Source: Deltaproteobacteria bacterium (lineage in GTDB: Bacteria > Bdellovibrionota > FAC87 > UBA2466). Taken from it: a DNA stretch of 64,000 bases. Made by a program: the position numbers and the translations under genes. The DNA lies in the NCBI GenBank assembly GCA_016196825.1, contig JACPWY010000019.1, positions 22,644-86,643 of the forward strand, given 5' to 3'. Of the stretch, positions 6,404 to 56,696 are shown piece after piece; within the stretch, counting starts at the first letter, position 1, and each line of letters opens with the position of its first letter. The notes under the pieces were generated by a model. The model was not told the DNA's origin. It saw only the letters and a list, made by a program, of their open reading frames with translations, and did not search any database.

Positions 6404-6592
6404 CCTGAAAGTGACAATAAATTTCGAGGAAAAATGCGTCAGGTGGGCTACTACAGCGACGTACTCACTTTTTTAAGCCGAGTCGTATCCATAGATACGG
6501 GGAGGTTTAAAAAAGTGAGTACGTCGCTGTAGTAGCCCACCTGACGCAAGCCTTGGCGGTTTTTACCGAAATTTATTGTCACTTTCAGGCTA
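6401..6592. repeat. 192-bp nested near-perfect palindromic element (MITE-like or large structured RNA)
   Basis: Outer arms tagcctgaaagtgacaataaattt (6401-6424) and aaatttattgtcactttcaggcta (6569-6592) are perfect inverted repeats. Inner 38-nt arms at 6437-6474 and 6508-6545 are perfect inverted repeats. The central loop contains gtatccatagatac. The element is AT-richer than its surroundings and intergenic between the cyclase and FkbM genes. Confidence 0.6.
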
Positions 6593-6654
6593 GGGGCCAG
6601 CCATTTGACATTGGTCGCGCCCGAAAACCATTATAGACAGATCAAAGGGGTCGT

Positions 6655-16885: not shown

Positions 16886-18380
16886 TCATACCGGATCGGA
16901 CGTTCTTACGCTGCAAGATGGTGTGAAGCTGCATTCGCGCGACGGGCCGAGGGGGCGTGTGGGGAACGAGAGGAAAAAGGTGCTTCCCTTTCCGAGTCGG
17001 GAATCTACCCAAATTGTACCGCCGTGATTTTCCATCACCTTTTTGCAGCTGGCTAGCCCGATACCGGTGCCCGGAAATTGAGATTGGCTGTGTCCGCGCT
17101 GGAATATTTCAAAGACCTTTTTGGTGTCCGCTTCGTCAATGCCGATTCCATTGTCTGAAAATGAAATCACAAAGTGATCTCCCTCGGTCGAGGCGGCAAT
17201 GTGGATCTTGGGCTTTCTGCGCGAGTATTTAAGGGCGTTGTCGACGATATTCATGAAGAGACGCCGCAGTTGAACCTCGCTCCCAACTACCTCCGGCAGA
17301 AGATCGAAGGAGATGTCGGCTCTCTTCTCGGTGATTTCGGGGGCCAGAATGGCGAGCACGTCGCGCGCCACTTTGACGAGCGAGATGACCTTCATCTCGG
17401 GCTTTGAGTAGGACACAGATGAGTATTCGAGGAGGTCTTCAACAACTTCCTGCATCCGCTTCGATTCCGAAAGGATGGTTCCCAGGTACTCCTGGCCGCG
17501 ATCGTCTAGTCGATCGCCGTACTCCCGGGCGAGGAGAGCCGCGTAATGGTTAGCGGTGCGGGCGGGTGCTTTCATATCATGTGAAGCGATCGAGGTGAAA
17601 TGTTGAAGTTGCTCATTGGAATCCGAAAGGCTCTGGGCCCGATCAGAGAGGACGGTTTCGAAGGCCTTTTGGGCGGTGATGTCGGAATAGATGTGGAGAC
17701 GAATGTCCAGGCTGGTGGAGGTGTCTTGGATTTTGCGGGATTCTCCCTTAAGCCAAACTATTCGCCCCCGGGGAAGGACAACCCGAAATTCCTGAGCCGC
17801 ATTGCCCCCTTCCCAAGTCCCTGGCTCGAGGAGGTCTTCTAATTTCCTGTCTTTCAGCTCAGTCGACGATGGCCGCTGAAAAAGACGGGCCATGGCATCG
17901 TTGGCTCGCAAAATGCGATCCTCAGTATCCACCTCCACCATGGCGACCGGCGCGAGGTCGAAGAGGGAGCGAAAATTTTTCTCGCTTTCCTCGAGTCGTT
18001 TTTCAAGGCGATAGGCATTCAGGGCGATCTCTATCGTTGTTTTTATGGAATGGTCCCGGTAGGGCTTCATCAAATAGCCAAAGGGGTGCGTCTTTTTGGC
18101 CTTTTCAATAGTTTGATCGTCAGAAAAGGCCGTGACAAAAATCACGGGGATATCGAAACGGTCGTGAATGATCTGAGCGGCGGCCGTCCCATCGGGCATT
18201 CCCCGCAGCTGGATATCCATCAAAACGAGATCGGGCCTTTCTTTTTCCGCCGTCGCGATGGCCTCTTCCGCCGTGAAGGCTATTCCAGCGCTCCGATACC
18301 CCAACTCCAATAGTTTTTCTTCGAGGTTCATGGCCGCGAGGCTTTCGTCCTCCACGATGAGAATTCTCTCATTGGACATG
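16886..18380 (-). CDS. hybrid response regulator / sensor histidine kinase (REC-PAS-HisKA-HATPase_c)
   Basis: ATG at 18380 gives MSNERILIVEDESLAAMNL…DLVLMDIQLRG (REC domain). C-terminal H-box FTSIASHDMKAP and G-boxes DNGIGI / GTGIGL follow. It starts 9 bp after the upstream kinase gene. Confidence 0.75.
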
Positions 18381-21300
18381 GTGTTCCCCTGTTTGATGAT
18401 GAGAAGGACTTCCAAAAAAGATGGAAAACTTAGCGCCGTGATCGATATCCATGTGAACCCTCCCACCGATCTGGCGGGTGAGCGTCTTCACTAATCGCAG
18501 GCCAAGCGACCTCGAGCGGTCAATGTCGAAGGCCTCGGGAAAGCCGACGCCGTCGTCCTCGACAACCAGCTCATAATCTCCCTCGACACGATTTTTATGG
18601 ATTCCCACCCGAATCGTCCCCTTCTCTTTGTTGTGAAACGCGTATTTCAGGGAGTTGGAGACCAGCTCGTTGATGATCAAACTGCATGGGATGGCGGTGT
18701 CGATTTCAAAGTCCGCGTCGTGGATGTCGAGCTTCACGGTCACGCGATTAGGGTCGACTCCGTAAGAATGGAACAGGGTACCGAGGAGATCTCTCACGTA
18801 CTCTTCGAAGTCGATTCGAGTCAGATTCTTCGACTGGTAGAGCTTTTCGTGAACCATCGCCATCGATACCACGCGATTCTGCGCCTCTCGAAAAGCGCCC
18901 CCCAGAGACTGGTCTTTGATGGATCTGAGCTGAAGGTCGAGCAGGCTTGAGATGACGTTGAGATTGTTTTTCACCCTGTGGTGAATCTCACGCAACAGAA
19001 TTTCCTTTTCCGCCAGTGCCGTGCGAATTCTCTCCTCAGACTCCTTAACGCGGTTGAGGTTGGGACTTACAGTCGCCCAGGCCATGGCCTTGCCCGAGCG
19101 ATCCCTGATCAGGAAGGCGTTCCAGATCGTGTGAATGGATGCTCCGGTCGTAAAGTGCCTGAATCGCACCTCACCGGACCACCGCCCCTTTGATTCCAGA
19201 GCTGGAATCGCTGTGGATTGAATGAGGGCTCGATCGTCCGGATGGAAGTAGTCGAGCAGAGCGGTCTTACTGATATCGTCGACAGATGTGAGCCCCACCA
19301 TCTCTCTGCCCGCCTCATTCACATAGATCGGCGCCATTTCGGGCGTACAGATGCCGATAAAATCATTGCTCCCCTCCACTACGGCGGCGAGAGTTCGCAT
19401 TTGGGAATCCATCTCCTTCTTGACGGTGATATCTCTCACGGCGACAATCACATAGGCATCAGCATCAGCATCAGCATCAGCATCAGCATGGATCGCCCCT
19501 TGTCCGGGGCTCAAGCTGATCTCCACCGGAAAGAACCGGCCATCCTTCCTCACCCCGAGAAGGTCCTTTCCAGCTCCCATGGCGCGGATGGTGGCATTCT
19601 GAAAATAGCTTTCCCTGAGAGAGACATGCTGCGCGCGGATGCTCTCGGGAACCAGAATCTCAACGGGCTGACCGATCAGCTCGCTCTTGGAATAACCAAA
19701 CATCCTTTCGGTTTCATTATTGACGTAGGTGATCTGACCTCGGAAACCCACGATCATCATGGCGTCGGGGGCTGACTCGAGAACCGCCCGAAACCGCCGC
19801 TCGTGCGCCAGCGCCTCGGCCTCGACTCTTTTTCGCTTCGACATGTCCCAACACACGCCAACCAGTCGGATGGGGTTGCCCTGTTCGTCGTTGTAACTCC
19901 TGCCCCGGACCTGGACGGTGTGGACCGAACCATCGGGCCAGCACGCGCGGTATTCGTCGTCCAATTGGAGGGTTGTGCCCGCAATAGACCGAACCTTCGT
20001 GTCCGCGCGCGAGCGATCCTCCGGGTGCAGCAAGGAAAGAAAATGCGAGTAGCTTGTCTCAAAGGTCTCGGGAGCTGTTCCGAAGATCTTGTGCATTCTC
20101 GCATCCCACGAAACCACTCCCGCGTTGATGTCCAACTCCCATCTCCCCATTTCCGAGGAAGAGAGAGACAAAGCAAGCTGAGATTCGCTGGTTGCGAGCA
20201 ATCGGGTCCTCTCTTCAACCTTTTTTTCCAGATTTCCAGCCAGGTCTCTGAGTGCGTGAGTCTGCTCCTGAACCCGTACCTCTAGGCGATCAGAATCCCC
20301 TTTCCGCAGTCTCCACAAATGAGCAAGGAGGGAGAGTAAAAGAGAGAAAAAAATCCCCCCCGAAAGCACCTTCCAGCGGGTGAGCGAGACCATCGCTTCA
20401 GCCTCGGCGCGCAAGGGAAGGATGACCATTTCCCATTTGGTGTCTTCATCCAACGGGAAGGTGACGTGCTGCCACCAATCAGCAGAGGAGGGCACGTTCG
20501 TAGGGGAGCGCCGATAAATCTCATGAGCATCTGAGAGAACCAGAAACCCAGAGCTCTCCTCCGCTGAGCTAGGAAGCAAATCCCGAATGAGAGAGTTAGC
20601 CCCAAACTCCGCCACCACGGCCCCGAGCCCTTTGACCGGAACTACAAAGAGAAGCGTTGTTGCCGTTTCATCAGGAACCCACACTGGGTGCTTTTGCCTC
20701 GTGGCAGTCGCTACCGCCCGCGGGAGGAAATGATCGAGATTGGAGAGCGGAAAGAGATTGGTTGAGATCAAGCTTTGCGATCCATTGCCTTGAGGCAACA
20801 GGCGAATGGAGCGAAGGGCGGTGTAATCTGGAAAATATTGAGTGGAGTCTTCCCTCCAAAATTTCAGATAGCTATCTCCGGCGATCTCCCACCTCCTGGC
20901 GATCCGCTTGATGGCTCTCTCTTTTTCTCGCAGGCCCAGCTGAACAATTCTCTGGGCCCCTTCCACCTTTTTTGAAAAAACATGTTGAATCTGGTCTCTT
21001 TCGTTCGCGGTCACGGCCTGCCACATAATGACCGAAACCGTCAGCCCCGAGATTCCCACCGAGATGGCGAGCCAGGACGGAATCTGCCGGGATTCTCGCC
21101 AGCTTTGGAAAAACGCGCGAGTGCCCAACGCGACGCTCAAGAGAAGGAAGAGGCCCGCCGTGTGAATGGCCATCCCAGTCAGCCCGGCCCACTGATGCGA
21201 GGGCGGGATTCCTGCCAGATAACCGTAGAGTGCGGCCACGGCCGATGCGCCCACAAATCCCGCCAGCGTGCTCGAAAACCAGCTCCTTTTTAGGGGAGAG

Positions 21301-21770
21301 AGCCGGCGACTCAGGGCACATATTTCGGCAACGCTCAGCAAGGCAAAGCTCAGGGCGGTCGGCGCGTCCATTCTGCCTGGGTAGGGAGCCCAGGGGAGAG
21401 GAAATGCCGACACAAAAAACTGATCGATTCCCAGGTTTTTTCCCGTGATGTATTCGAGGAGCGTGAGCCCTGAAATCACGAACGTGACGGCCACGAGCCC
21501 CCAGGCGAGAAGTTTGCGGAGAGGGGGGCGGCCGTCGAGAAGAGCGAGAATGCCCAAGGCCAGGAAACAAATCGCCGTGTTGAATTGCATCGGAGCCGAA
21601 TTGGGAAAGAGCTGAATCAACCCCGCGCTATGGATATGCCATGCGTAGACACCCAGGGCCCCGAAGAAAATCGTGATGATCCCGGTCGCTCGGTGAAGCA
21701 CGCATTCAAAACGCGACATCTGCGCTAAAAACATGCCTGCATTTTCATCTTTCTCGATCCACGAACGCAA
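18369..21770 (-). CDS. membrane-anchored multi-PAS sensor histidine kinase (HisKA_2/HWE-type H-box)
   Basis: The N-terminal about 330 aa are polytopic membrane. Several PAS/PAC blocks follow. H-box [27 protein letters not shown] is of HisKA_2 type, followed by an ATPase domain ([11 protein letters not shown]…DDGVGFP). Confidence 0.75.
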   Translation of the reverse strand: MRSWIEKDENAGMFLAQMSRFECVLHRATGIITIFFGALGVYAWHIHSAGLIQLFPNSAPMQFNTAICFLALGILALLDGRPPLRKLLAWGLVAVTFVISGLTLLEYITGKNLGIDQFFVSAFPLPWAPYPGRMDAPTALSFALLSVAEICALSRRLSPLKRSWFSSTLAGFVGASAVAALYGYLAGIPPSHQWAGLTGMAIHTAGLFLLLSVALGTRAFFQSWRESRQIPSWLAISVGISGLTVSVIMWQAVTANERDQIQHVFSKKVEGAQRIVQLGLREKERAIKRIARRWEIAGDSYLKFWREDSTQYFPDYTALRSIRLLPQGNGSQSLISTNLFPLSNLDHFLPRAVATATRQKHPVWVPDETATTLLFVVPVKGLGAVVAEFGANSLIRDLLPSSAEESSGFLVLSDAHEIYRRSPTNVPSSADWWQHVTFPLDEDTKWEMVILPLRAEAEAMVSLTRWKVLSGGIFFSLLLSLLAHLWRLRKGDSDRLEVRVQEQTHALRDLAGNLEKKVEERTRLLATSESQLALSLSSSEMGRWELDINAGVVSWDARMHKIFGTAPETFETSYSHFLSLLHPEDRSRADTKVRSIAGTTLQLDDEYRACWPDGSVHTVQVRGRSYNDEQGNPIRLVGVCWDMSKRKRVEAEALAHERRFRAVLESAPDAMMIVGFRGQITYVNNETERMFGYSKSELIGQPVEILVPESIRAQHVSLRESYFQNATIRAMGAGKDLLGVRKDGRFFPVEISLSPGQGAIHADADADADADAYVIVAVRDITVKKEMDSQMRTLAAVVEGSNDFIGICTPEMAPIYVNEAGREMVGLTSVDDISKTALLDYFHPDDRALIQSTAIPALESKGRWSGEVRFRHFTTGASIHTIWNAFLIRDRSGKAMAWATVSPNLNRVKESEERIRTALAEKEILLREIHHRVKNNLNVISSLLDLQLRSIKDQSLGGAFREAQNRVVSMAMVHEKLYQSKNLTRIDFEEYVRDLLGTLFHSYGVDPNRVTVKLDIHDADFEIDTAIPCSLIINELVSNSLKYAFHNKEKGTIRVGIHKNRVEGDYELVVEDDGVGFPEAFDIDRSRSLGLRLVKTLTRQIGGRVHMDIDHGAKFSIFFGSPSHHQTGEHHVQ
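19456..19490. repeat. hexanucleotide SSR (gcatca)x5-6 inside the kinase CDS, encoding (Ala-Asp)n
   Basis: gcatcagcatcagcatcagcatcagcatcagcatg is read directly. The minus-strand translation is HADADADADADAY, in a PAS-PAS linker. Confidence 0.8.
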
Positions 21771-21843: not shown

Positions 21844-22134
21844 TCATGCCTGCAGGGCCTCCGGGGGGGGGGCCAAAAGAACCGCCGAATGAGATACCTT
21901 GCCTTTATTCACCGAAATCTCGATTCGATAGCGATCGAATTCAAGGGTTTGGTGGTCTTGCTTCGCATCCACATCATCGAACGTGACTCCCTGAAGATCG
22001 CCATTCTGCGCAAAGAAACCTACTCCATCACCCTTTTTCGCCTCCGTGGCATCCCCAAAGGGGCCAGGTTGAAAATCAAGGTGAAGAGCACCTGAACCGC
22101 CAATTGAAATAAAGTTGACCTTAGCTTTTTGCAT
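21844..22134 (-). CDS. small hypothetical protein (96 aa), possible DUF2283-like antitoxin partner
   Basis: Overlaps the upstream small gene by 14 bp. Its 3' region contains a G10/C10 homopolymer encoding PPP. Family similarity is weak and from memory only. Confidence 0.3.
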   Translation of the reverse strand: MQKAKVNFISIGGSGALHLDFQPGPFGDATEAKKGDGVGFFAQNGDLQGVTFDDVDAKQDHQTLEFDRYRIEISVNKGKVSHSAVLLAPPPEALQA

Positions 22135-22405
22135 AATGAACCTTCTTCAGATTTTTGTGTTTACGACGAACGGTCACCAGCAGGTAATGGAGGGAATCGA
22201 AGCGATAAAAAAGGTGAAATAGGTGTTTCTTTTGCTCTTGGAACACTTCCGATGGATCCCGCAGCACCCGCTCGACAAGTTCTAGAACTATTTCCTCGGG
22301 GAAAAGGGGAAAGTGACGGGCCATAGTGTGTCCCAAGGCTTCCGTGAGTACTACCACTCTATCGCCAAGAACATCGGTAATAACTGCTGTCACTTTCTTG
22401 TTCAT
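22121..22405 (-). CDS. small hypothetical protein (94 aa), possible DUF4258-like toxin
   Basis: LGHTMARHFPLFPEEIVLELVE resembles the H-A-x-x-R-M-x-x-R-x-I motif region of DUF4258-type toxins. The assignment is uncertain. It forms a two-gene module with 21844..22134. Confidence 0.3.
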   Translation of the reverse strand: MNKKVTAVITDVLGDRVVVLTEALGHTMARHFPLFPEEIVLELVERVLRDPSEVFQEQKKHLFHLFYRFDSLHYLLVTVRRKHKNLKKVHYAKS

Positions 22406-22492: not shown

Positions 22493-23683
22493 TCACCCCC
22501 TAAGCGAACAGACGTCAATCCCGCCCTCTCGATAGCTCTCATTGGTGTGGGTTAGCATCATCAGTCGCGGTTTCTCGGAGCGTGCTCTTTCTTGGAAAGC
22601 AATCAGACTGGCCCAATCCCGACGTGTCGGAGCTTCACCATCAAAAGGACGAATGGCAAGTGGTGGTGGACTGTTTCTCGCCTTTGGAAAACTGATGACC
22701 ACTGGAATCCTAGAGGATTTCTCATTTCGATAATACTCCAGTCTCGGTCGACCGAAACCGTGATACTCCAAAGTGGATAAGGCCTGAACGGCTACGAATG
22801 TCCGCAACTGCGTGTCGCGGTTGGCTCCGAGAGAGTGGGCGATTCCACTGTCACACAAGATGTATTCTGATTTCCCGACGCCGGCTTGGTGCGGTCTTAA
22901 TTCTCTCAGGACGAATATTCTGGTGAATGCGTCTAGATATCGTTGAACCACTCGCCTGTCACGACCTACGACTATGGCAATGGCCGCCGCGGTGGGCTCT
23001 TCCTGTCTCGCCACCGCGCTCAGGATATCTTGAGCCAGTTCTCCATCAAACTTTCCGGAACCGGCCCTGGAAATGTCTCTTTGGCACGTGGTCTCAATCC
23101 AAACGGAGACCGCGCTTGAAAACTCGGAATCGGTTCTCAGAAAGCAGATCCCGGGCATCCCACCTCGCTCCAGTGTCCTATCAAATTGCGTCAAAGAAAT
23201 TTGGCTTTCCGATTTCCGAAAAGTCAGAAAATATTTCCCCATTTTCTTTTCATGAAGTTCGGAACAATTGAGAGGGTATAACTGAATCAGCCCGATTCGC
23301 CCCGTCAATGACTCTCTCACGCCGGTGTACCGGGAAAATTCAGTCGAACCGCTGATGACATACATTCCGGGGCGCCGCCTTTCATCAACATGCAACTTAA
23401 TCGCGTCAAAGAGATCGGGGACCTTTTGTATCTCATCAATGAAAAGCGCCTCCCCCTTGATTCTCGGGGCACTGAAACTCTCGGGTGCTCTCGTGGCCCG
23501 TTCCCGATCCTTCTTTGAGTCCATCGTGTGATAGTCGCCCGACACGCAGGGAGCTAGAAGCTCCCTTAGCAATAGGCTTTTACCGCACTGCCTGACTCCC
23601 ACCACACCCAAAACAGGCCACAACCGAATTCGTTTCTTGAGTAACTCCAGAACGTCGCGCTCTCTTCTGTGTGCCATTGACAA
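22493..23683 (-). CDS. AAA_14/DUF4143 family ATP-binding protein
   Basis: Walker A GVRQCGKSLLLRELL and Walker B/arch region ALFIDEIQKVPDLFDAIKL, with a C-terminal DUF4143-like region. It is a paralog of 40535..41677 and of the fragment at 24478..24969. Confidence 0.65.
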   Translation of the reverse strand: MSMAHRRERDVLELLKKRIRLWPVLGVVGVRQCGKSLLLRELLAPCVSGDYHTMDSKKDRERATRAPESFSAPRIKGEALFIDEIQKVPDLFDAIKLHVDERRRPGMYVISGSTEFSRYTGVRESLTGRIGLIQLYPLNCSELHEKKMGKYFLTFRKSESQISLTQFDRTLERGGMPGICFLRTDSEFSSAVSVWIETTCQRDISRAGSGKFDGELAQDILSAVARQEEPTAAAIAIVVGRDRRVVQRYLDAFTRIFVLRELRPHQAGVGKSEYILCDSGIAHSLGANRDTQLRTFVAVQALSTLEYHGFGRPRLEYYRNEKSSRIPVVISFPKARNSPPPLAIRPFDGEAPTRRDWASLIAFQERARSEKPRLMMLTHTNESYREGGIDVCSLRG

Positions 23684-23765
23684 AGCATACCGTTTTTTAC
23701 GTGTAGACGCAATTATCGGTATGATATGAGCGCTTCGTTCAAGGCGCCGATTCAGTTCTAGAGCA

Positions 23766-24140
23766 TCACCACATAGCCTTCCCGAAGTGCCTGAGAATAG
23801 ACCGGTCCTTGGTCACAAGTCTTGCATTGCCGATGATGGCCTGTGCGACGAGTAGGCGATCAAATGGATCTCTCGTCCACGATTGCTCTATGGCCGCTTC
23901 GCTGATCAGCTCGAACGATTCTGAGGCCAAAACCAAGCCCACGCGCATCTCAAGGTCTCTCAAAATCTCTTTGGAACCGACCGATACCTTTCCGGCCTCG
24001 TGGAGATACTCCAACTCGAGCGAAACCATCGGGGAAATGCTGAGGTCGTTGACCTCAATCAGTTTTTTCGCTTTATCGGAAATGAGCTCGCTGCGCCCGT
24101 AATAGAGCCAAACCACCACGTGGGTGTCGAGGTGAATCAT
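23766..24140 (-). CDS. vapC: PIN-domain ribonuclease toxin VapC
   Basis: IHLDTHVVVW…DPFDRLLVAQAIIGNARLVTKDRSI is the PIN acidic-residue pattern. ATG at 24140 overlaps the antitoxin stop (ATGA). Confidence 0.7.
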   Translation of the reverse strand: MIHLDTHVVVWLYYGRSELISDKAKKLIEVNDLSISPMVSLELEYLHEAGKVSVGSKEILRDLEMRVGLVLASESFELISEAAIEQSWTRDPFDRLLVAQAIIGNARLVTKDRSILRHFGKAMW

Positions 24141-24367
24141 GGAAGCTTTGGCTTCCAGTGTTTCGACCAATCCATGTGAACAAGCTCTTCGGGGTCGCCA
24201 CTCAACCCTTCACGTCGCTCTAGCCGATCTAGCTTGCTGACACGCTCGAGAGCCGAAATCCGTATGGTCCTTCCCTTCCGCACGATCTCGATGGGACGCC
24301 CGGTCTTCAAGACCTGGTCCAGTAACCGATAGATATTGGCCCTCAGGCGCGAGGCGTTCAGCTTCAT
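24137..24367 (-). CDS. Phd/YefM-type antitoxin (VapB-like)
   Basis: MKLNASRLRANIYRLLDQVLKTGRPIEIVRKGRTIRI is a typical Phd/YefM N-terminal fold sequence. It is 4-bp coupled to vapC. Confidence 0.55.
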   Translation of the reverse strand: MKLNASRLRANIYRLLDQVLKTGRPIEIVRKGRTIRISALERVSKLDRLERREGLSGDPEELVHMDWSKHWKPKLP

Positions 24368-24477
24368 CCCAAAAGAATAGCAAAAAAGCGTACGTATTTT
24401 CAATATTAAAACGTACGTATTCGATGACGTCTACAGGCGTTTTGACAAGACTCCAAAAACGTTGAGAATTTTGGAGT

Positions 24478-24969
24478 ATGGTCCATCGACTTTGTAACCC
24501 TTTGATGTCACGATCTTTTTTTCTCTTCGGGGCGCGCTCCACCGGAAAGAGCACGCTCATCCGGCAGCTTCCCGCGTTTGACGAACGCCATTACGTTGAC
24601 CTGCTCGACGATGAGGTTTTGAACGAGTATTCACGGGATCCGAAAAAGCTGGAGATGCTGGCGTCAGAAAGTGATTGGGTCTTCATTGATGAAGTTCAAA
24701 AATCGACAAAACTTCTCAATACTGTGCACAAGCTGATCGAAAAGAAGAAAACCAAATTTGCTCTGACCGGGTCTAGCGCACGCAAGCTGAAGCGCGGCGG
24801 TGCAAACCTGTTAGGCGGGCGGGCCAATGTGTTTCATCTCTACCCCTTGACCGCCAGGGAAGCGTTTCTATCTCTCCCAGGACCACAAGACCGGCGAGTC
24901 AGAGGGCGTTCAGTGTCTTCATTGGGAAGAATTTCTAGCCAAAGTTTTTGTCTGAACAGGTTTCAGTAA
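24478..24969 (+). pseudogene. truncated AAA_14/DUF4143 ATPase (N-terminal 163 aa only)
   Basis: Walker A GARSTGKSTLIRQL and Walker B WVFIDEVQKSTKLLNTVHKL are present. The ORF stops after about 160 aa, whereas full-length paralogs are 380-396 aa, and it runs convergently into the REC gene. It is either a fragment or a different short-form protein. Confidence 0.45.
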
Positions 24970-25651
24970 CGGCGGGGTGGACTCCACCTCGCGATTCCGC
25001 CCCTTGTTCTTTTCTGAGGTTTAGAAGAAAGTCGTCAATCAATTCCCCCACTTTCCGAGCGCCATCGACTGAAACCTGAAGGAGTCGCTCCAGTTCCGGG
25101 TCAGATCTCTCTGTGCCCTTTCTCTGAAGGAGTGAAAGGTGGGTTGAAAGCATTCGAAGGGGCTGTTTCAAATCATGGGAGGTAATCGATGCGAATTGTT
25201 CGAGCGCGCGGTTGGATCGGCTAAGCTGTTCCTCCAAAGCCCGTTGTTTTTCCAGAGAAATCAGGAGGCCCTTTTCGAGGCGAATTTTTTCAAGTGCAAT
25301 CTCAATGGTCGAGCGAATGGCGGTGTCACGCACTGGTTTCACGAGGTATCCGTAGGGAGCTGTATTCTGGGCGCGGAAGAGCGTTGCGTCGTCTGAGAAC
25401 GCTGTCAGATACACAATCGGGGTGTTGTTCGATTCTTTGATCTGGATCGCAGCCTCAATCCCATCCATTTCTCCTTTGAGCTTAATGTCCATCAAGATGA
25501 GATCCGGCACGGTCTCCGCCGCCTTCTTGATGGCCTCGGCACCGGAAAAGGCTATGCCAGCACATTCGTAGCCCAGCTGGACCAATTTGGTTTCTAGATT
25601 CATCGCCGCGACGGCTTCGTCTTCGACGACTAAGATGCGCGTTTTATTCAT
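24935..25651 (-). CDS. response-regulator receiver protein with C-terminal HisKA (DHp) segment but no ATPase domain
   Basis: [18 protein letters not shown]…[11 protein letters not shown] is a REC domain. [16 protein letters not shown] is an H-box. The ORF ends about 90 aa later with no N/G boxes. It is 4-bp coupled to the upstream kinase. Confidence 0.6.
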
Positions 25652-28185
25652 TGCTGACCCCCCACGGCGGCAGCCCTTTCGGGTGAAGGAAATCGAATTT
25701 GATAATGGGTTCCGGCTATCCCGGTGGGAGGGCTCATCAATTCCGCGTCAAGCTGACGACTGAGCATTGTGACGAGCTTCAGTCCCAAGGAGCGGGCTTT
25801 CGTTACGTCGAACCCACTCGGAATGCCAACGCCATCATCAGAAACCGCCAATTCGAGATTCTCACCATTTGGGGACTGACGCATTGATATACACACTTTC
25901 CCTGTTTTCCTTCCCTTGAATGCGTGCTTGAGCGAATTCGACACCAGTTCGTTAATGATGAGACTGCAAGGAACAGCGGTATCTATAGGCAGAGAAATAC
26001 TCTCTGTCTGGAGAACGGGCTCAAATTTCGAAGGGTCAACCCCATAGGAATGGTAGAGATTCAGGACCAACTCCCTCACATAGGAATGAAAATCAATCTC
26101 TGCAATGCTCTTGGATTGGTAAAGTTTTTCGTGGATGAGAACCATCGAGATGATGCGATTCTTACTCTCGGCGAATGCTTCATGGAGTTCGGGGTCAGCA
26201 ACATGGGTGGATTGGAGGTCGAGAAGGCTCGAGATGATATTGAGGTTGTTCTTCACACGGTGATGGATTTCACGGAGAAGAACCTCCTTTTCTCTGAGTG
26301 AGGCCTCAACTTGTTTCTGCGCATTCTTGCGACTCGTAATATCGCGAATGGTACTGGAAATAATAACACCAGCCGGAGTTTGCAAAGGGCTGAGGCTGAT
26401 CTCAACGGGAAACTCACTTCCATCTTTCCGCAAACCGTACAACTCCATTCCGCTTCCCATGGGGCGTGCCTTGGGATTTGCGAAATAATTGTTGCGATGC
26501 GCGGGATGTTTTTGTCGAAAACGCTCCGGTATGAGTGCCTCGACATATTGGCCGAGTAGCTCATTGCGCTGATACCTGAAGACCTCCTCCGTCTGTGCGT
26601 TGATTAAGACAATCTTACCTGCCCTGTCTGTAATCACCATGGCATCGGGTGCCGATTCGACGAGGCCCCTGAGGTTTTCTTCTGCTCTCTTTTGTGCCGT
26701 GATATCCCGAGCGATCTTGGAGGCCCCGACAATGTTCCCGCTTGCGTCTTTTATGGGAGAAACGGTGATGGACATCTCCACAATAGTCCCATCTTTTCGA
26801 ATGCGCGCGGTTTCATAATGCTCAATCCGCTCCCCGTGCTTGAGCCTTTCCAAAATATGAGCCTCTTCATCGGCAAGGGAAGAGGGAACTAACAAAGAGA
26901 TGGGTTTTCCCAATATCTCATCATTTGCATAACCAAAAATTCGTTGGGCACCTTCGTTCCAGCTAGTCACTTTGCCGTCCAGTGTTTTTCCGATAATCGC
27001 ATCGTCGGAGAAAGTGACAATCGCCGCAAGCTTGGCAAGTTCCCCTTCGGCTCGCTCACGCTCCCTTACCTCAAGCTTCAGTTTCTCTTTTTCTGAATTC
27101 AAATCCTCCAGGATATTGAAGGCGGCCCGTTGCAGGTCTTCCATTTTTTCGCGTTCAGCACTAAAGTCTTCCAAAATGTTGAAAGTCGCAGCTTGGGTGT
27201 CCTCAATCTTCGATTTCTCAGACGCAAAGTCTTCAAGAATATTGAAGGTAGCATGTTGAGTGCTTTCGCTTTTCAACCGTTCCTGAGCGAAGTCATCCAG
27301 AATATTGAAGGTTGCCCGCTGATTTTCCTCAAGACGTAGTCTTTCAGTGGCAAAGTCTTCAAGAATATTCACGGCCGCCCGCTGCATATCTTCCAACGAC
27401 TGGACTTGCTTGCTTTCGGTGAGATCACGAGTGATCTTGGAGAATCCGATGAGATTGCCCGTATTATCTCTGATCGCGGAGATAATGATATTAGCCGAGA
27501 ACCTTGAGCCGTCTTTCCTGACTCGCCAACCCTCGTCTTCGAATCTCCCTACCCGTGCAGCGACATCAAGCTCGTGTTGGGGTTTACCATGATTAACATC
27601 TTCCTCTGTGTAGAACTTTGAAAAGTGTTGGCCGATAATCTCATCGGCCGGATACCCTTTGATCCGCTCCCCACCGGCGTTCCAACTGAGAACGGTGCCT
27701 TTTGTATCAAGTATGAAGATGGCATAGTCTTTGACGCTCTCAACGAGAAGACGGAGCTTTTCCTCGCTTTCACGGAGGGCAGCATCGGCGTGCATTCTTT
27801 CCGTGAGATCCCGGATGACTTTACCAAACCCCACGAGCCGACCGTCGCTATCACGAATGGCCCCAATGACGGCATTCGCCCAAAAACGGCTGCCGTCTTT
27901 GCGAACCCGCCAACCCAGATCCTCGGAGCGTCCTGTTTCCTTGGCAATTTTAAGCTCTCGTTCGGGTTTTCCGGCCTCGATATCCCCCTTGGGATAGAAC
28001 TGAGAGAAATGGCTGCCCAGGATCTCTTCGGATCGGTAACCTTTGAGTCGCTCCGCGCCCGCGTTCCAGCTCACAACCCTTCCTTCGGGATCGAGCATGA
28101 CAATGGCGTAGTCGACGACAGTGGATGCAAAGAGGCGAAAACGTTCTTCAGCCCTGTGCGGATCTTCGTGATGAGGTGAAAGCAT
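25648..28185 (-). CDS. cytoplasmic multi-PAS sensor histidine kinase (HisKA_2-type) with internal 21-aa tandem repeats
   Basis: Multiple PAS/PAC blocks ([12 protein letters not shown]…). H-box [27 protein letters not shown] and ATPase domain [11 protein letters not shown]…DDGVGIP. Five repeats of ..[10 protein letters not shown].. lie at aa 266-372. Confidence 0.75.
27070..27400. repeat. five tandem ~63-bp in-frame repeats inside kinase CDS
   Basis: DNA units of the type gtcttc(c/a)a(g/a)aatattgaag(g/t)… recur. They are translated as (Q/T)xA(A/T)FNILEDFxxE(R/K)x(K/R)xE(D/E) x5. Confidence 0.75.
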
Positions 28186-28200: not shown

Positions 28201-29865
28201 TTACGCCGCTGGTCCCGAGCTCCTTTTCAGTTCCTCGATCTCCTTTTTAAGCTCAATCATCTTGAGCTCGCGTCCCACGGTGAGCTTTTGAAATCGCTCG
28301 AGTTCGGCCAGACGAACAAGCTCTCTGGTTCGTTGTTCCGCGACCTCTTTCTCGGCGCGTTTTTGGGCGGTCACGTCACGAGCAGCGGCGAAAACCCCCA
28401 ATACGTTTCCACGGACATCCTTATAAACGGAGGCGTTGTAAAGAACGTCGGTCAGCTTTCCATATTTGTGTCGAATCGTGAGCGGGTAATCAGATACGAA
28501 GCTTTTTGCAAATACCTGTTTGTAGCCCTCCCGCGCCTTCCCAGGCTCCGTGAAATAGTTCGAGAAGTCGGAGCCGATCAACTCCTGTCGCGAGGTGCCC
28601 GTGACTCTCATGGTCGCTTCATTAACGTCCATGATTTTGCCGTCAGGACTGATGGTCACGAGTGGATCTAAAGAGGCCTCAATCAAGCTTCGCGAATATT
28701 GTGACGCTTGTTTCTGCGCGGTCACGTCACGAGCAGCGGCGAATACGCCTGACACATTCGCGGTTCCATCCTTATAAACGGAGGCGTTGTAAAGAACGTC
28801 GCTCAGCTTTCCGTCTCTGTGCCGAATCGTGAGCGGATAGTCAGCGACAAACCCTTTGGCAAAGACTTGTTGATAACCTTCTCGTGCTTTCTCAGGCTCC
28901 GTGAAATAGTTCGAGAAGTCGGACCCGATCAATTCTTCTTGGGAAACACCGGTAACCTTGGTTGTGGCCTCGTTAACGTCCGTGATCTTACCATCGGCGC
29001 TAATGGTCACGAGTGGATCTAAGGAAGCCTCGATCAAGCTGCGGGCGTATTGCGACGCTTGTTTCTGCGCGGTCACGTCGCGAGCGGCGGCAAACACGCC
29101 CAGCACATTTCCGCGAACGTTCTTATAAACAGACGCATTGTAAAGAACATCGGTCAGCTTTCCGTCCTTGTGCCGAATCGTGAGGGGATAGTCGGAGACA
29201 AACCCTTGAGCGAATACCTGCTTATATCCCTCTCGCGCTTTCTCAGGCTCCGTGAAATAGTTCGAGAAGTCGGACCCGATCAATTCTTCTCGGGAAATAC
29301 CCGTAACCTTGGTTGTGGCCTCGTTAACGTCTGTGATCTTACCATCGGCGCTAATGGTCACGAGTGGATCTAAGGACGCCTCGATCAAGCTTCGGGCATA
29401 TTGAGCAGCTTGCTGCGAAGCCTCTTTCTGGGCCGTCACATCGCGTGTAATGGACGAGACACCCACGACGTCGCCTATTTTATTCTTAATTGGCGACACC
29501 GTCAGGGAGACGTCGATAATCACGCCATCTTTTTTAATGCGCTTCGTATCGTAATGCTCAGTTTTCTCACCTCGTTTAATCTTTTCTATGACGGGCGCCA
29601 ATTCGTTGGAATGGTCTTTCGGCACCAGGGTGTAAATTGATTGGCCGATCATCTCATCTGTTGTGAATCCGTAAATTCGTTCGGCGCCTTCGTTCCAGCT
29701 GGTGATCGTGCCGTCCAGATCCTTGCCTACGATCCCATCGTCGGCGGACTCGACAAGTGATGCGAGCCGGTCGCGATCATCCTCGAAACTGCTCGCCATC
29801 GATCCTTTTTCCTTCGAATACTTTCTGTATTGTGATTTTATCGGCACTTGGGTTTGCTCATGCAT
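28201..29865 (-). CDS. PAS-domain-only signalling protein with three near-identical tandem PAS repeats and C-terminal coiled coil
   Basis: An N-terminal PAS block is followed by three copies of a ~106-aa PAS unit (TAQKQASQYARSLIEASLDPLVTISADGKITDVNEAT…VFAAARDV). The tail is ELVRLAELERFQKL… with no output domain. Confidence 0.7.
   Translation of the reverse strand: MHEQTQVPIKSQYRKYSKEKGSMASSFEDDRDRLASLVESADDGIVGKDLDGTITSWNEGAERIYGFTTDEMIGQSIYTLVPKDHSNELAPVIEKIKRGEKTEHYDTKRIKKDGVIIDVSLTVSPIKNKIGDVVGVSSITRDVTAQKEASQQAAQYARSLIEASLDPLVTISADGKITDVNEATTKVTGISREELIGSDFSNYFTEPEKAREGYKQVFAQGFVSDYPLTIRHKDGKLTDVLYNASVYKNVRGNVLGVFAAARDVTAQKQASQYARSLIEASLDPLVTISADGKITDVNEATTKVTGVSQEELIGSDFSNYFTEPEKAREGYQQVFAKGFVADYPLTIRHRDGKLSDVLYNASVYKDGTANVSGVFAAARDVTAQKQASQYSRSLIEASLDPLVTISPDGKIMDVNEATMRVTGTSRQELIGSDFSNYFTEPGKAREGYKQVFAKSFVSDYPLTIRHKYGKLTDVLYNASVYKDVRGNVLGVFAAARDVTAQKRAEKEVAEQRTRELVRLAELERFQKLTVGRELKMIELKKEIEELKRSSGPAA
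28440..29400. repeat. three tandem ~318-bp near-identical repeats (each encoding one PAS domain)
   Basis: DNA blocks beginning gtcacgtcacgagcagcggcgaa… recur at about 28365, 28715 and 29065 with few substitutions. Protein repeats differ at about 10% of positions. Confidence 0.75.
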
Positions 29866-30013
29866 GGGCCACCTCGCTCAATTTTGTCGGAATTATTCTA
29901 GGCCACACCTTCGCCAAAAGCATTCCTGGATTTTCGTCTTTTCTGGGTCCAACAAAAAAGAAATATTGTTGCGCAGCACGGCAGACCTTCGCTGTGATCA
30001 TTGCCACTTAGAC

Positions 30014-30165
30014 ACTTTCTACTCGGAACGATCAAAACACCCTGGCCCTTCGTTCTCCGGTATCGCTTGATCGCCAACTTTTAAAAGAAAGGGCCCGTTC
30101 TCCCCGGTCCGGGACATTTTGCCTCGCTCCTCCCGACGAAAGGGATTTAGGGATAGGCTCTTAGC
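30014..30165. repeat. MITE-like palindromic repeat, copy A (variant core)
   Basis: Shares the left arm ctttctactcggaacg…cctggcccttcg and right arm ggacattttgcctcgctcctcccgacgaaaggg…taggataggctct with copy D (56697-56874). It has a different central segment. It lies in a divergent intergenic region. Confidence 0.6.
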
Positions 30166-30250
30166 CCAACGCATTAACGCGCTAGACTGCCTAAAACACT
30201 TCAGAATTTCGCCTGTTTTGCCGATAATAGAGAAGTCCTCCACCCAAACC

Positions 30251-34459: not shown

Positions 34460-34897
34460 TCAAGGTTTCAGGCGGGTGAAGCCCACGGTGATCTTCCCCC
34501 GGGCCACCACCCCGCATTGGGTTAGGTTTCGAATGGTGAGGTGGAGGATGAGCGCCCTTTCCCCCTCGATTCTCTGGGCCACAACGGTTTCAATTTCCAC
34601 CGAGTCTCCAGGATAGGACGGAGCGTGGTAACGCACATCAGCCCCGAGAAGGAGGGCTTGGCGGCCGGGAAAGACCCTCCCAATGAAATGGGACAAAAGG
34701 CCGTGGAGGATGCCACCGTGGATCACCGGTCCCTGAAAGCCAGCCTTTTGGGCAAATTCCTTGTCCGCATGAAGGGGGTTGGTGTCGCCAAAGAGCGCCA
34801 TGAACGATTGGTGGAGCTCCTCGCTGAGTGGGTATTCATGGCTGTGGCGATCGCCGAGATGCACCTGGTCAAAATGAAAATCGGGAGAGATCTCCAT
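34460..34897 (-). CDS. MaoC-like (R)-hydratase/dehydratase, hotdog fold
   Basis: FMALFGDTNPLHADKEFAQKAGFQGPVIHGGILHGLLS is the MaoC signature. Confidence 0.7.
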   Translation of the reverse strand: MEISPDFHFDQVHLGDRHSHEYPLSEELHQSFMALFGDTNPLHADKEFAQKAGFQGPVIHGGILHGLLSHFIGRVFPGRQALLLGADVRYHAPSYPGDSVEIETVVAQRIEGERALILHLTIRNLTQCGVVARGKITVGFTRLKP

Positions 34898-34950
34898 TTC
34901 GTTATTCTACCTGGTTGACGAGAGATCGGGAGTCTTGAGAGCTTCTGCAG

Positions 34951-36063
34951 ATGGCAGTGGCTTTGGTGACCGGCTCCTCCGGGCTTGTGGGGAGCGAGAC
35001 CGTAAAATTCTTGGTTTCTCAGGGGCTGGAGGTTCATGGGCTCGACAACGACATGCGTTCCTATTTTTTTGGAGGCGAAGCCTCGACGCAATGGAACGCT
35101 GAGTGGCTGACGCATCATCTGAAACCCTTTCATCACCACTCGCTCGATATTCGCAATGAGGCGGAGGTCAACGCGCTCTTTGGGCGATTTGGTGGCGCCA
35201 TCGATCTCATTGTGCATGCCGCTGCCCAGCCGAGCCATGACTGGGCGGCGCGCGAGCCGCTCACCGATTTTTCTGTCAACGCAGTGGGGACCTTGGTTTT
35301 GCTGGAGGCCGCCCGCCGCCATTGCCCAGCCGCCACGTTTATTTTTATCTCAACGAATAAGGTCTATGGTGACCGTCCCAATTCTTTGCCGATTCTCGAG
35401 GGGGAATCTCGGTATGAAGTGGATCCCAAACATCCTTTCGCGCAATCCGGCATCGATGAGACGATGCCAATCGATCAGTCGAAGCACAGTCTCTTCGGGG
35501 TGAGCAAGATGGCGGCCGATCTCCTGGTGCAGGAATATGGCCGGTATTTTGGAATGAAGACCGGCGTTTTTCGTGGGGGCTGTCTGGCGGGGCCGGCCCA
35601 TTCTGGCGTCGAGCTCCATGGCTTTTTGCCTTACCTTGTTCGATGCGCAGTAACCGGGATCCCCTATCGCATTTTCGGATATCGAGGGAAGCAGGTTCGC
35701 GACAATATCCATTCCGCTGATCTGGTGAGCGCGTTCTGGCATTTTTATCGGCAGCCGGGTTGCGCAGCCGTCTACAATATCGGTGGCTCGCGCCACAGCC
35801 ACTGTTCGATCCTGGAAGTGATTCAGCTGATTCAGGAGATCGCGGGGCGCGAAATTTCTTACACGATCGAGGATGGGGCGCGGACTGGTGATCACATTTG
35901 GTGGATCAGCGATGTGCGTAAGTTTCAGCATCACTACCCGGGTTGGTCCTACCGTTATGATTTGCGGGGCATCCTCACCGAAATGGTTGAGGCCGCGCGG
36001 GAAAGATATCTCACTCCCCAACACTTCCGACAGAGTTTGGAAACTCCCCCTCTCAACGCATGA
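34951..36063 (+). CDS. NAD-dependent epimerase/dehydratase family protein
   Basis: [21 protein letters not shown] is a Rossmann motif. Extended SDR, 370 aa. Confidence 0.75.
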
Positions 36064-39033: not shown

Positions 39034-39141
39034 TAAAACCCTCCATAGGCGAGGGTGGGGTCAAAGACCTCTCGCGGGATGAGCGCAATGAGCCGGAGGC
39101 TGAGCAGGGTGAGCATCAGGAGCGTTCCCCAGAGGGCGAGC

Positions 39142-40374: not shown

Positions 40375-40454
40375 GGAGTGAAGTGTACCCTACTGAGGAG
40401 CTCATGGTTAAGGACACCGCAATGTACTGGCTTGTGATCGAAGCCACCGTCACT

Positions 40455-40534
40455 TCAGTCGGCGCAGTTTGAATACTTTTTGGTATACCGATTTGTATTA
40501 AAGAATAGATTTTGGTATACCGAAAAGTATTCAA
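40455..40534 (+). promoter_or_regulatory. AT-rich putative promoter/operator with duplicated palindromic site TTGGTATACCGA
   Basis: gaatactttttGGTATACCGAtttgtattaaagaatagattttGGTATACCGAaaagtattc carries two copies of GGTATACC (self-complementary), flanked by inverted gaatactttt / aaaagtattc. It lies immediately upstream of the AAA_14 gene. Confidence 0.4.
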
Positions 40535-41677
40535 GTGGGGATTCCTTTGAAACGCTATCTGACAACTTGGTTGAAAACGGCACTGAAGGAAAAGATGGTT
40601 TTTGTGGGTGGGCCGCGCCAGGTCGGAAAGACGACTTTAGCATTTCAACTCCTGGGGAACGCGGATCCTGAGCAATCGGCCTATTTCAATTGGGATATTC
40701 ACGGGACAAAGACGCGGATTCTCAACCATGAATTGCCGGTGGATCAGAAACTCTTAGTGTTTGATGAGATTCACAAGTACCGACAATGGCGGAATTTTCT
40801 GAAAGGGCTTTTCGATCAATACAAGTCAAAAAAGGAGATTCTCGTTACCGGGTCTGCGCGACTGGATGTTTTTCGAAGGGGGGGCGACGCTCTCACTGGT
40901 CGGTACCACTATTATCGATTTCATCCCCTGTCGCTCTGTGAGATCAGTCAGCAGCCAAAATCGTCCGATCTTGATCATTTGCTTAAGTTTGGGGGATTTC
41001 CAGAGCCATTTCTCAAGGGAGAAGAGCGCGCTTGGAAGGTGTGGCAGAATGAACGCGTTACTAGAGTCGTTCAAGAGGACCTGATTTCCTTGGAGAGGGT
41101 GAACGAGCTCAGTCAACTCAGTCTCCTTGCGGAAATATTGCCTATCAGAGTCGGAAGTCTCCTCTCACTCAACAACCTTCGAACTGAGCTCAAGGTCTCT
41201 TACGAGGCTGTCGCAAGGTGGATAGAGATCTTCGATAATCTCTATTACTCCTTTCGCATTTCCCCCTTTGGGTTTGCCCCCCTGCGGACGGCCAAGAAGG
41301 AAAAGAAGCTTTACCTCTGGGACTGGTCTTCTGTTCCCAATGAGTCGGCAAGAGTGGAAAATTTTGTGGCCAGCCATCTGTTGAAATATTGTCATGCGAG
41401 ATATGATCACTTTGGAGAACGGTTGGAGCTACTCTTCTTACGCTCACCGATTGGCAAAGAGATCGATTTCCTCGTGTGCGATCGAAAAAAGCCGGTCTTC
41501 GCCGTGGAATGTAAGTCAGGGGATCGGGAGGTGAGCTCGTCGATTAAATACTTTGCCCCACGAATGCCCATCCCGCGCTTTTTTCAGGTCCATCTCGGGA
41601 AAAAGCATGTCGAGGTGAAGGATTATCGCACTGAGATTATCCCCATGACCCAGTTCGGGAAATGGCTGGGTGTCTAG
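40535..41677 (+). CDS. AAA_14/DUF4143 family ATP-binding protein
   Basis: Walker A GGPRQVGKTTLAFQLL and Walker B LLVFDEIHKYRQWRNFLKGLFD. 380 aa. Its stop abuts the ACP gene's GTG start. Confidence 0.65.
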   Translation: MGIPLKRYLTTWLKTALKEKMVFVGGPRQVGKTTLAFQLLGNADPEQSAYFNWDIHGTKTRILNHELPVDQKLLVFDEIHKYRQWRNFLKGLFDQYKSKKEILVTGSARLDVFRRGGDALTGRYHYYRFHPLSLCEISQQPKSSDLDHLLKFGGFPEPFLKGEERAWKVWQNERVTRVVQEDLISLERVNELSQLSLLAEILPIRVGSLLSLNNLRTELKVSYEAVARWIEIFDNLYYSFRISPFGFAPLRTAKKEKKLYLWDWSSVPNESARVENFVASHLLKYCHARYDHFGERLELLFLRSPIGKEIDFLVCDRKKPVFAVECKSGDREVSSSIKYFAPRMPIPRFFQVHLGKKHVEVKDYRTEIIPMTQFGKWLGV

Positions 41678-41929
41678 GTGGATGCAGGCACCGTGCTGTT
41701 GAGGCTCCAGACCATTTTTGACGACCTGCTTCTTCAGCCGGTCACGCTCACGCCAGCGCTCAGCGCCGATGAGGTCGAGGAATGGGATTCCCTGTTACAG
41801 GTGTCGATCGTGGCCGCGGCCGAAGAGAGATTTGGCATTCAGTTTCGCACGGGTGAAGTGGAGGCGACGCGGAATGTGGGTGATCTGGTCGCCTTGATCC
41901 AACGGCATCTTTCCCGTCAGGCAGGTTGA
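41678..41929 (+). CDS. acyl/peptidyl carrier protein (phosphopantetheine-binding)
   Basis: GTG start. …ADEVEEWDSLLQVSIVAAAEERFGIQF…VGDLVALIQ has the DSL Ser motif and four-helix ACP pattern. Confidence 0.65.
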   Translation: MDAGTVLLRLQTIFDDLLLQPVTLTPALSADEVEEWDSLLQVSIVAAAEERFGIQFRTGEVEATRNVGDLVALIQRHLSRQAG

Positions 41930-43467: not shown

Positions 43468-43532
43468 TAGAACGTATTTCATAAATAGTTTCTACTCGGC
43501 TGGTCAAAAAGCCCAGGCTCTTCGTCCTCGCG
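43468..43532. repeat. MITE-like repeat, copy C (left half only, solo arm)
   Basis: tagaacgtatttcataaatagtttctactcggctggtcaaaaagcccaggctcttcgtcctcgcg matches the left 65 bp of copy B. No right arm is present. Confidence 0.6.
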
Positions 43533-56685: not shown

Positions 56686-56696
56686 TTTTTGGTTTA

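Follow-up and report, generated by a model that had tools for sequence, protein, structure and literature searches.

The stretch of DNA analyzed here, referred to throughout as the window, comprises 64,000 nucleotides (nt) of contig JACPWY010000019.1 (positions 22,644 to 86,643 of the forward strand) from assembly GCA_016196825.1 of a Deltaproteobacteria bacterium that belongs to the Bdellovibrionota. It contains three open reading frames (ORFs) for ATPases of the AAA_14 family, and a check of the ORFs placed them where an initial annotation, made from the sequence alone, had listed them (22493–23683, 24478–24969 and 40535–41677). With two start codons revised as described below, the three genes, designated copies 1, 2 and 3, are as follows.

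22493..23677, minus strand: copy 1, 394 residues, from a nuclease-dead clade; an AAA_14 ATPase joined to a winged helix and, at the C terminus, a degenerate PD-(D/E)XK-like domain
24478..24969, plus strand: copy 2, an N-terminal AAA_14 fragment and pseudogene (Pfam score and tblastn extents)
40547..41677, plus strand: copy 3, a complete 376-residue AAA_14-DUF4143 protein with ATPase, lid, winged helix and intact PD-(D/E)XK motif

All three belong to Pfam AAA_14 (PF13173), with scores of 80.3, 81.5 and 88.5 bits for copies 1, 2 and 3, respectively, against a gathering cut-off of 27, and all have Walker A and Walker B motifs. The PADLOC hidden Markov model PDLC04790, which represents the candidate defense gene PDC-S01, also matches each of them by E-value (1.3e-48 for copy 1, 7.7e-22 for copy 2, in the N-terminal part only, and 3.1e-43 for copy 3); searches of NCBIfam and PHROGs with the ATPases gave no match. 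The Pfam DUF4143 profile (PF13635; cut-off 28.1 bits) is passed by copy 3 alone (69.9 bits). Copy 1 scores 17 bits over profile positions 2–99 only, which correspond to the winged-helix part, and copy 2 lacks the region altogether. A tblastn search of the whole window with 240 family proteins identified exactly three copies; a weak match at 62.6 kb that was considered as a fourth is the AAA+ module of a Lon protease. Three copies within 64 kb represent clustering beyond a uniform expectation, and about 1.6 PDC-S01 genes per genome were reported in a survey of the rumen (PMC13356809). The likely start of copy 1 is the ATG at 23677, as in the 394-residue NCBI call, rather than 23683, and an exact-match look-up found no record of copy 1 with a TTG start. 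The likely start of copy 3 is the TTG at 40547 rather than 40535 because its homologues have about 376 residues.

The identities between pairs of the three proteins are 24%, 26% and 27%, values so low that the copies are not recent paralogs. By these identities, copies 1, 2 and 3 are members of three distinct clades of the COG1373/AAA_14-DUF4143 family and not recent duplicates. Copy 1 belongs to a small clade (183 matches at E ≤ 1e-10), with its nearest relatives elsewhere at 54–55% identity. Copy 3 belongs to a very large one, with relatives of up to 71% identity, and 6,798 clusters at 50% identity are detectable from copy 3 alone. The nearest relative of copy 2 is a gene in an Oligoflexia metagenome-assembled genome (MAG), at 51% identity. 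An origin of the three genes by recent duplication within this region, to which the presence of three members of one Pfam family in 64 kb could point, is refuted by the identity values and is scarcely credible; each copy has far closer relatives in other phyla, and the promoter and operator designs described below differ among the three. The initial description of a cluster of AAA_14/DUF4143 paralogs around a VapBC pair thus stands as regards three copies of one family and the VapBC pair (ORFs, Pfam and tblastn), applies to DUF4143 in copy 3 only, and fails for paralogs in the sense of local duplicates. The best explanation, which we consider probable, is that the window holds three independently acquired single-gene cassettes of the COG1373/AAA_14-DUF4143 family, the PADLOC candidate PDC-S01.

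A full member of this family begins with a P-loop ATPase of the archaeal-ATPase/STAND/Orc-Cdc6 structural type; a helical lid and a winged helix come next, and the C-terminal part is a predicted PD-(D/E)XK nuclease domain. DUF4143/COG1373 has been listed as a PD-(D/E)XK family (PMC3424549). Copy 3 has all of the invariant motifs of its clade (GPRQVGKTT, DEIHK, TGSARLD and RGGDxLxGR), including the E305-x-D307 and E321-x-K323 motifs that are invariant across the copy-3 clade. The PD-(D/E)XK superfamily is characterized by an α-β-β-β-α-β core whose second strand bears an Asp and whose third strand bears (D/E)xK. In the predicted model of copy 3 (pLDDT 84), the C-terminal region has such an α-β-β-β-α-β core, which comprises helix 266–289; strands 293–299, 305–312 and 315–322; helix 331–336; and strand 345–349. 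The model of copy 1 (pLDDT 91) retains the ATPase motifs and has the same order of secondary structure elements as the core of copy 3, with R-I-P and R-P-F at the catalytic positions. Throughout the copy-1 subclade, Pro (RIPVVISF) stands in place of the nuclease Asp, and no ExK motif is present. Copy 1 has kept its ATPase but lost the nuclease catalytic residues and is predicted to be nuclease-dead.

Comparison with proteins of known type delimits the family further. A sequence search of the PDB with the window ATPases gave no match. The archaeal Walker-type ATPases SSO1545 (PDB 2fna) and PABY2304 (PDB 2qen) are 14–16% identical to the window proteins, and the alignment is limited to the N-terminal ∼230–245 residues and leaves out the nuclease domain at the C terminus. 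STAND NTPases (CED-4/Apaf-1, plant NLRs, bacterial Avs5 and MalT) combine an NTPase, helical and winged-helix module with a C-terminal repeat or sensor domain; the window proteins lack that last domain, carry the effector at the C terminus and are only ∼380–400 residues long. In contrast to the Orc1/Cdc6 initiators, the family has no replication context, has its boxes in its own promoter and has a nuclease domain appended. Of the previously described systems, PDC-S01 is matched by all three proteins (best E-values of 1e-48, 8e-22 and 3e-43), whereas its full architecture is present in copy 3 only, copy 1 being without catalytic nuclease residues and copy 2 being a fragment.

The end of copy 2 lies against a convergent gene.

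24935..25651, minus strand: truncated REC-HisKA gene (Pfam), which converges on and overlaps copy 2

Family homology in copy 2 stops at about 24861–24945 (tblastn), approximately one third of the way along a full-length relative (51% identical, 394 residues) that has an intact EIDLII...ICEIK motif, and no C-terminal remnant was found in any frame by tblastn against the window. The REC-HisKA gene lacks the HATPase_c domain that is found in its paralogue at 16931–18379, and the alignment of this paralogue with the truncated gene covers residues 1–185 only. Because copy 2 stops early and the gene that overlaps it is without HATPase_c, a single breakpoint near 24.87–25.0 kb cut both copy 2 and the convergent REC-HisKA gene.

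The region that contains copies 1 and 2 is itself bracketed by two paralogous operons (16931–21770 and 24935–28185), each of which consists of a large PAS/HisKA_2 sensor kinase gene followed by a REC-HisKA hybrid gene, the right-hand hybrid gene being the truncated one. Within the 845-residue sensor kinase of the right-hand operon (25648–28185), positions 27092–27374 comprise five tandem 63-nt (21-residue) repeats between PAS domains that encode units of the (A/T)(F/V)NIL(E/D)DF... type. The adjacent 554-residue ORF (28201–29865) has three tandem repeats at 28359–29360 with a spacing of 351 nt and 78% identity; in L172, the gene that overlaps these repeats is called as a multi-PAS protein. Here and below, L-numbers designate loci used for comparison.

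Copy 3 lies in a cluster of glycan and acyl-transfer genes, directly upstream of an acyl carrier protein (ACP) gene.

41678..41929, plus strand: ACP gene, a member of the FkbH-like/MBOAT acyl-transfer cluster, with a GTG start that abuts the stop of copy 3

The zero intergenic distance to the ACP gene that had been noted initially is confirmed: the TAG stop codon of copy 3 (41675–41677) is followed, with a gap of 0 nt, by the GTG at 41678. The surrounding genes encode a GT2 glycosyltransferase, a methyltransferase, two DegT proteins, MaoC, epimerases, an FkbH-like protein, MBOAT and the ACP. This arrangement suggests an explanation in which copy 3 serves ACP-dependent glycan acylation as a dedicated regulator or partner and shares transcription and translational coupling with the ACP gene, and the absence of a predicted promoter-like site between the two genes, the winged helix of the protein and its position within the glycan cluster are consistent with it. 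However, copy 3 has the lowest GC content of the cluster (0.49, as compared with 0.54–0.61 for the other genes); neither the ACP nor any other recurring neighbor accompanies the gene in any of the 83 loci of its clade; and the window ACP is 61% identical to that of an ATPase-free FkbH-ACP-356aa-MBOAT operon in a distant relative. We therefore regard a dedicated role in acylation as very unlikely. Because the relative has FkbH-ACP-356aa-MBOAT-MaoC in a colinear cluster without the ATPase, the ACP belongs to the acyl-transfer pathway and copy 3 is an interloper in the region upstream of it.

The acyl-transfer genes form a conserved, uncharacterized set (34460–41929, compared with L169–L171) that is colinear in the relative and rearranged in the window, and that consists of an FkbH-like loader, an ACP of 82–83 residues, a protein of 356 or 410 residues without a Pfam family, MBOAT and a MaoC dehydratase. 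The 410-residue ORF (39142–40374) contains a sequence that resembles a miniature inverted-repeat transposable element (MITE), through which the frame remains open; its sole homologue (356 residues) has ∼58 residues fewer where this repeat lies. The MITE-like repeats are ∼180 nt in length with perfect 25-nt terminal inverted repeats (TAGAACCTATCTCATAAATAGTTTC) and are present at 39645–39823 (the one within the ORF), 56689–56865, 58564–58755 and 30007–30169, with a half copy at 43468–43529. A composite element formed by the repeats at 39645 and 43468 around copy 3 was considered and rejected, the first being inside the 410-residue ORF and the second being a half copy only.

Each of the three genes has a palindromic region upstream, as described initially, and the design differs from copy to copy.

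23681..23728, no strand assigned: imperfect inverted repeat of copy 1, with 22-nt arms (CATACCG...CGGTATG), immediately upstream of the gene; putative operator
24442..24483, plus strand: copy 2 promoter, TTGACA-16-GAGAAT, overlapped by an inverted repeat with 15-nt arms (CTCCAAAA...TTTTGGAG) at 24444–24483
40469..40534, plus strand: copy 3 regulatory region, a palindrome with 31-nt arms that consists of two 32-nt units, each with TTTTGGTATACCGA

Comparable large inverted repeats occupy the same position in the copy-1-clade loci L086, L087 and L088, and a full-length gene of the copy-2 type (L069) has the same promoter layout as copy 2, with GCCAAAT...ATTTGGC. The region upstream of copy 3 is of another kind, in which two TTTTGGTATACCGA boxes (40478–40491 and 40510–40523) form a perfect pair. 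Within the copy-3 clade, the best upstream direct repeat (at least 11 of 14 matches) has a spacing of exactly 32 nt in 44 of 79 loci, as compared with 2–11 loci at any of 26 spacings in shuffled controls. Where σ70 elements are recognizable in this clade, box 1 lies over the –35 element and box 2 follows the –10 element, and boxes were never found downstream of the gene in these loci. In the copy-1 and copy-2 clades, the start codon is instead accompanied by a large inverted repeat, and 32-nt phasing was rejected as a family-wide rule, since neither the copy-1 clade nor distant relatives show it.

The boxes fall into sequence families that vary with the residues at the N-terminal end of the predicted recognition helix. 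(i) GACTCTAA boxes are associated with the helix VA(F/Y)ET. (ii) TTGACCnGAAAA boxes are associated with ASHEA in four of four cases. (iii) ACTCATGAGT boxes are associated with (A/G/S)H(E/D)T in 13 loci. (iv) TGGACT boxes are associated with xD(H/F)KT. (v) The type of box shared by copy 3 of the window and L002 is associated with VSY(E/Q)(A/T). Each cassette, as read from its upstream sequence, carries its own promoter with clade-specific repeats, and the promoter boxes suggest autoregulation through the winged helix. What is new here is the putative operator pair embedded in the promoter, with its exact 32-bp phasing and a sequence that appears to track the recognition helix.

The genomic contexts of related genes are not conserved. 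The copy-3-clade set includes 83 loci from >10 phyla, in which the genes are 49–58% identical to copy 3. Its close homologues adjoin tsaE, follow smpB/ssrA or are located between the sdh and aconitase genes, and homologues of copy 1 follow an opp ATP-binding cassette (ABC) transporter or lie beside a DHH phosphoesterase gene, as solitary genes in mostly housekeeping contexts. Synteny is not conserved around the close homologues of either copy, and neither VapBC nor an ACP recurs there; conserved synteny in distant relatives, which the initial annotation had named as the observation that would contradict a selfish family, was not seen around homologues of copy 1 or copy 3. In the 83 loci, the only recurring neighbor family is another, distant AAA_14 gene within 6 kb (9 of 83). 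Among 114 immediate neighbors in the copy-3 clade, the Pfam profile is mostly metabolic and the sole recurring PADLOC family is PDC-S01 itself (three members), with a few single matches besides. A phage origin was rejected because a collection of 2.9 million viral contigs contained no relative of the copy-3 clade and PHROGs gave no match. Targeting of tRNA genes was also rejected as a general rule, since a tRNA lies within 1.5 kb in only 2 of 83 loci, plus one tmRNA locus. The tmRNA of that locus (L003, 5440–5788) was missed by ARAGORN and identified by Rfam (RF00023, 149.5 bits), and the ARAGORN counts of tmRNA adjacency are therefore underestimates. The absence of conserved neighbors, the distribution over >10 phyla, the low GC content relative to neighboring genes, the absence from the relative's cluster and the flanking direct repeats described next together argue for horizontal spread.

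A second new observation is that, at ∼10% of family loci, a single-gene unit of 1.2–1.5 kb lies between direct repeats of 23–139 nt that correspond to the 3′ end of a host gene. The clearest layout is that of L003, in which a perfect 25-nt duplication of the 3′ end of the tmRNA gene (ssrA; Rfam-confirmed) is present on both sides of a 1,420-bp unit that consists of the promoter and gene only. Flanking repeats above the 99th percentile of displaced-window controls were obtained at 12 of 67 copy-3-clade loci and, in the broader family, at 5 of 51 loci, with lengths of up to 139 nt and a control rate of 1%. The repeats of L074, L049, L064, L028 and L048 were discarded as dispersed or low-complexity host repeats, and flank-only repeats of 23–114 nt were left in the copy-3 clade at L003, L008, L054, L058, L073 and L024; in L003, L008, L054 and L073, the upstream repeat copy could be assigned to the 3′ end of a particular host gene or ORF. 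The same signature is found in the copy-1 clade at L167, and the att-like duplications in total include those at L117, L141 and L155. In some loci, the flanking repeats are 8–10% diverged. No integrase was found within or beside the units examined, and the bracketed units have no shared terminal motif. One of the discarded loci, L074 (3888–9682, from a Leptospiraceae MAG), has an array of 114-nt repeats with a period of about 325 nt upstream of its copy-3-clade gene. Genes for oligopeptide ABC ATPases of the OppD/F type have a cassette inserted at their 3′ ends both at L008 (copy-3 clade) and at L167/L168 (copy-1 clade), with perfect flanking repeats of 23–25 nt; the shared insertion site may reflect a target preference or coincidence.

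The units differ from transposons and insertion sequences in that the promoter boxes, which were considered as terminal repeats and rejected, are never present downstream of the gene, the termini are not shared, and the flanking repeats are 23–139 nt long. They resemble the integrative islands that target tmRNA and tRNA genes and the integrase-less cis-mobilizable elements in the 25-nt duplication of the ssrA 3′ end in L003, and other loci duplicate the 3′ ends of protein genes; unlike those islands, the family unit is 1.2–1.5 kb with one cargo gene and no integrase, and the window copies bear no scar. Two explanations of the movement were considered beyond horizontal spread as such. In one, which is possible although doubtful, the ATPase-nuclease has no part in its own movement and each cassette is carried passively, being left over from an integrase-driven island or else excising and reinserting by Campbell-type recombination between the flanking repeats. 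The perfect tmRNA duplication in L003, the variable and partly diverged repeats of host-gene 3′ ends elsewhere and the lack of conserved termini agree with this, because repeats of such a kind are less readily explained by a fixed staggered cut than by recombination, whether homologous or site-specific. It is opposed by the absence of an integrase in or beside the units and by a strikingly uniform unit that always has just this one gene, and it does not explain the first arrival at new sites. In the other, the genes for AAA_14-winged-helix-PD-(D/E)XK proteins would be autonomous single-gene mobile elements, the ATPase-nuclease itself catalyzing or directing insertion of its own ∼1.2–1.5-kb cassette at host gene 3′ ends, recognizing DNA through the winged helix and leaving long, variable duplications. 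We consider this quite unlikely. If it were true, the abundance of this defense candidate would largely reflect selfish spread, and the 32-bp-phased boxes would be the control and recognition sites of the element itself. The initial proposal of a semi-mobile or selfish family is partly supported by the variable synteny, the phylum range, the GC content, the relative's ATPase-free cluster and the repeats at ∼10% of loci, and is weakened by the missing scar at the window copies.

The remaining genes at 21.8–25 kb lie around copies 1 and 2.

23766..24140, minus strand: vapC, a 124-residue PIN-domain toxin (Pfam PIN 42.4 bits, cut-off 23.6; E-value 1.3e-10)
24137..24367, minus strand: vapB, a 76-residue Phd/YefM-like antitoxin (PhdYeFM_antitox 27.2 bits, under the cut-off of 29.8; TIGR01552 E-value 0.001)
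24374..24421, minus strand: predicted vapBC promoter, TTGAAA-18-TATTCT, flanked by two AAA(G/A)CGTACGTATT boxes
22121..22405, minus strand: orf94, downstream of copy 1, weakly PBECR2-like (barnase/EndoU/RelE-type; PF18810 23.4 bits, under the cut-off of 27.1)
21844..22134, minus strand: orf96, a small ORF with a 14-nt overlap with orf94 and no family match

The pair is a type II toxin-antitoxin module in which the PIN toxin gene follows a small antitoxin gene in a translationally coupled arrangement, the vapB stop and vapC start overlapping in ATGA (24137–24140), and the toxin is called as a 124-residue protein in three other assemblies; the antitoxin is likewise called there with 76 residues. 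The AAA(G/A)CGTACGTATT boxes (24385–24398 and 24408–24421, with a spacing of 23 nt) constitute a putative VapB operator. The ACGTACGTATT boxes were considered as an operator of copy 2 and rejected: they lie on either side of the –35 element in the promoter predicted for vapB, and copy 2 has its own inverted repeat, a design kept in L069. With its upstream Phd/YefM-like antitoxin, ATGA overlap and palindromic promoter boxes, the pair resembles other VapBC modules; it is an ordinary example, and no conserved link to the flanking ATPases was seen.

The initial annotation had described this neighborhood as a small defense/addiction islet, and joint action of VapBC, the ATPases and the PBECR2-like ORF as one functional unit would be consistent with the co-directional, tightly packed order vapB-vapC-copy 1-orf94-orf96, with the PDC-S01 match of every ATPase copy and with the location between duplicated kinase operons. 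It is also kept in four assemblies of the same organism, the gene order of the three others (one from NCBI, two from SRA) being identical to that of the window, and no strain variant without the islet was found among those three. The four assemblies represent the same lineage, however, and therefore carry no comparative weight for conservation of the islet. Homologues of VapB, orf94 and orf96 were found beside family members in none of the other related loci examined, and the only VapC-like neighbor was one weak match in L012. Moreover, the relatives of copy 1 are solitary, each gene has its own predicted promoter or operator, and copy 2 is a pseudogene. A functional islet is thus unlikely and that description is not upheld; VapBC, orf94, orf96 and the ACP gene are neighbors unrelated to the ATPase cassettes.

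Two features elsewhere in the window are separate from these subjects. The intergenic region at 6400–6593, between ORFs 5750–6403 and 6655–7500, is a large nested palindrome without an Rfam match, in which 55-nt arms (6435–6489 and 6494–6548, 91% complementary) lie within 34-nt arms (6400–6433 and 6560–6593). The gene at 45004–47748 encodes a 914-residue protein with DUF5122 β-propeller repeats and several Ig-like domains, and it has internal DNA repeat periods of about 170 and 348 nt.

The statement that the function of the ATPase family is unknown holds experimentally, but the family was already on record, both as a PD-(D/E)XK fusion (PMC3424549) and as the PADLOC candidate PDC-S01 (PMC12988326). 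PDC-S01 was described as a very abundant single gene that encodes a fusion of an ATPase with a PD-(D/E)XK domain and shows inter-domain transfers, and as the fourth most common prokaryotic defense candidate (PMC12988326). The PDC candidates were nominated by "guilt by embedding" and were called untested (bioRxiv 10.1101/2024.01.29.577857), whereas the copy-3 clade is mostly outside defense contexts. A literature search for "AAA_14" gave only unrelated string matches. For the independently acquired cassettes of the window, the most likely mechanism, as we infer it, is that of a self-repressed, ATP-switched, DNA-binding nuclease. The winged helix would bind the repeats in its own promoter, and the protein would thereby repress itself; a trigger would then lead to ATP-dependent assembly on DNA and activation of the nuclease; the activated nuclease would act in genetic conflict, in either defense or self-preservation; and the cassettes would spread horizontally as discrete units of ∼1.2–1.5 kb.

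Several observations weigh against this interpretation. Copy-3-clade genes seldom adjoin defense genes: the co-occurrence proposed initially as a check is not borne out, with no enrichment among the 114 immediate neighbors and with housekeeping contexts for the copy-1 clade. The conservation of the copy-3-clade genes is also unusually high for an immune gene (mean column identity of 71% in the clade), and the one PDC-S01 representative tested in E. coli B did not figure among the protective systems against T4, T5 or T7 (PMC12881386). The co-variation of boxes and helices is confounded by shared ancestry, and a consensus scan found no canonical σ70 promoter for copy 3 of the window. Finally, flanking repeats were not found at the window copies themselves, and about half of the first set of flanking-repeat cases were ordinary dispersed host repeats.

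PDC-S01/COG1373 has been reported among the most abundant candidate defense genes in bacteria and archaea, and the window adds three members. Because one large clade occurs almost wholly in housekeeping contexts, not every PDC-S01 match should be read as a defense gene. The subclade with an intact ATPase and an ablated nuclease site provides a handle on the family. The 32-bp-phased operator pair predicts autoregulation and a DNA-binding specificity code, and the units between duplicated host-gene 3′ ends, one of them at ssrA, predict that these genes would move as discrete cassettes.

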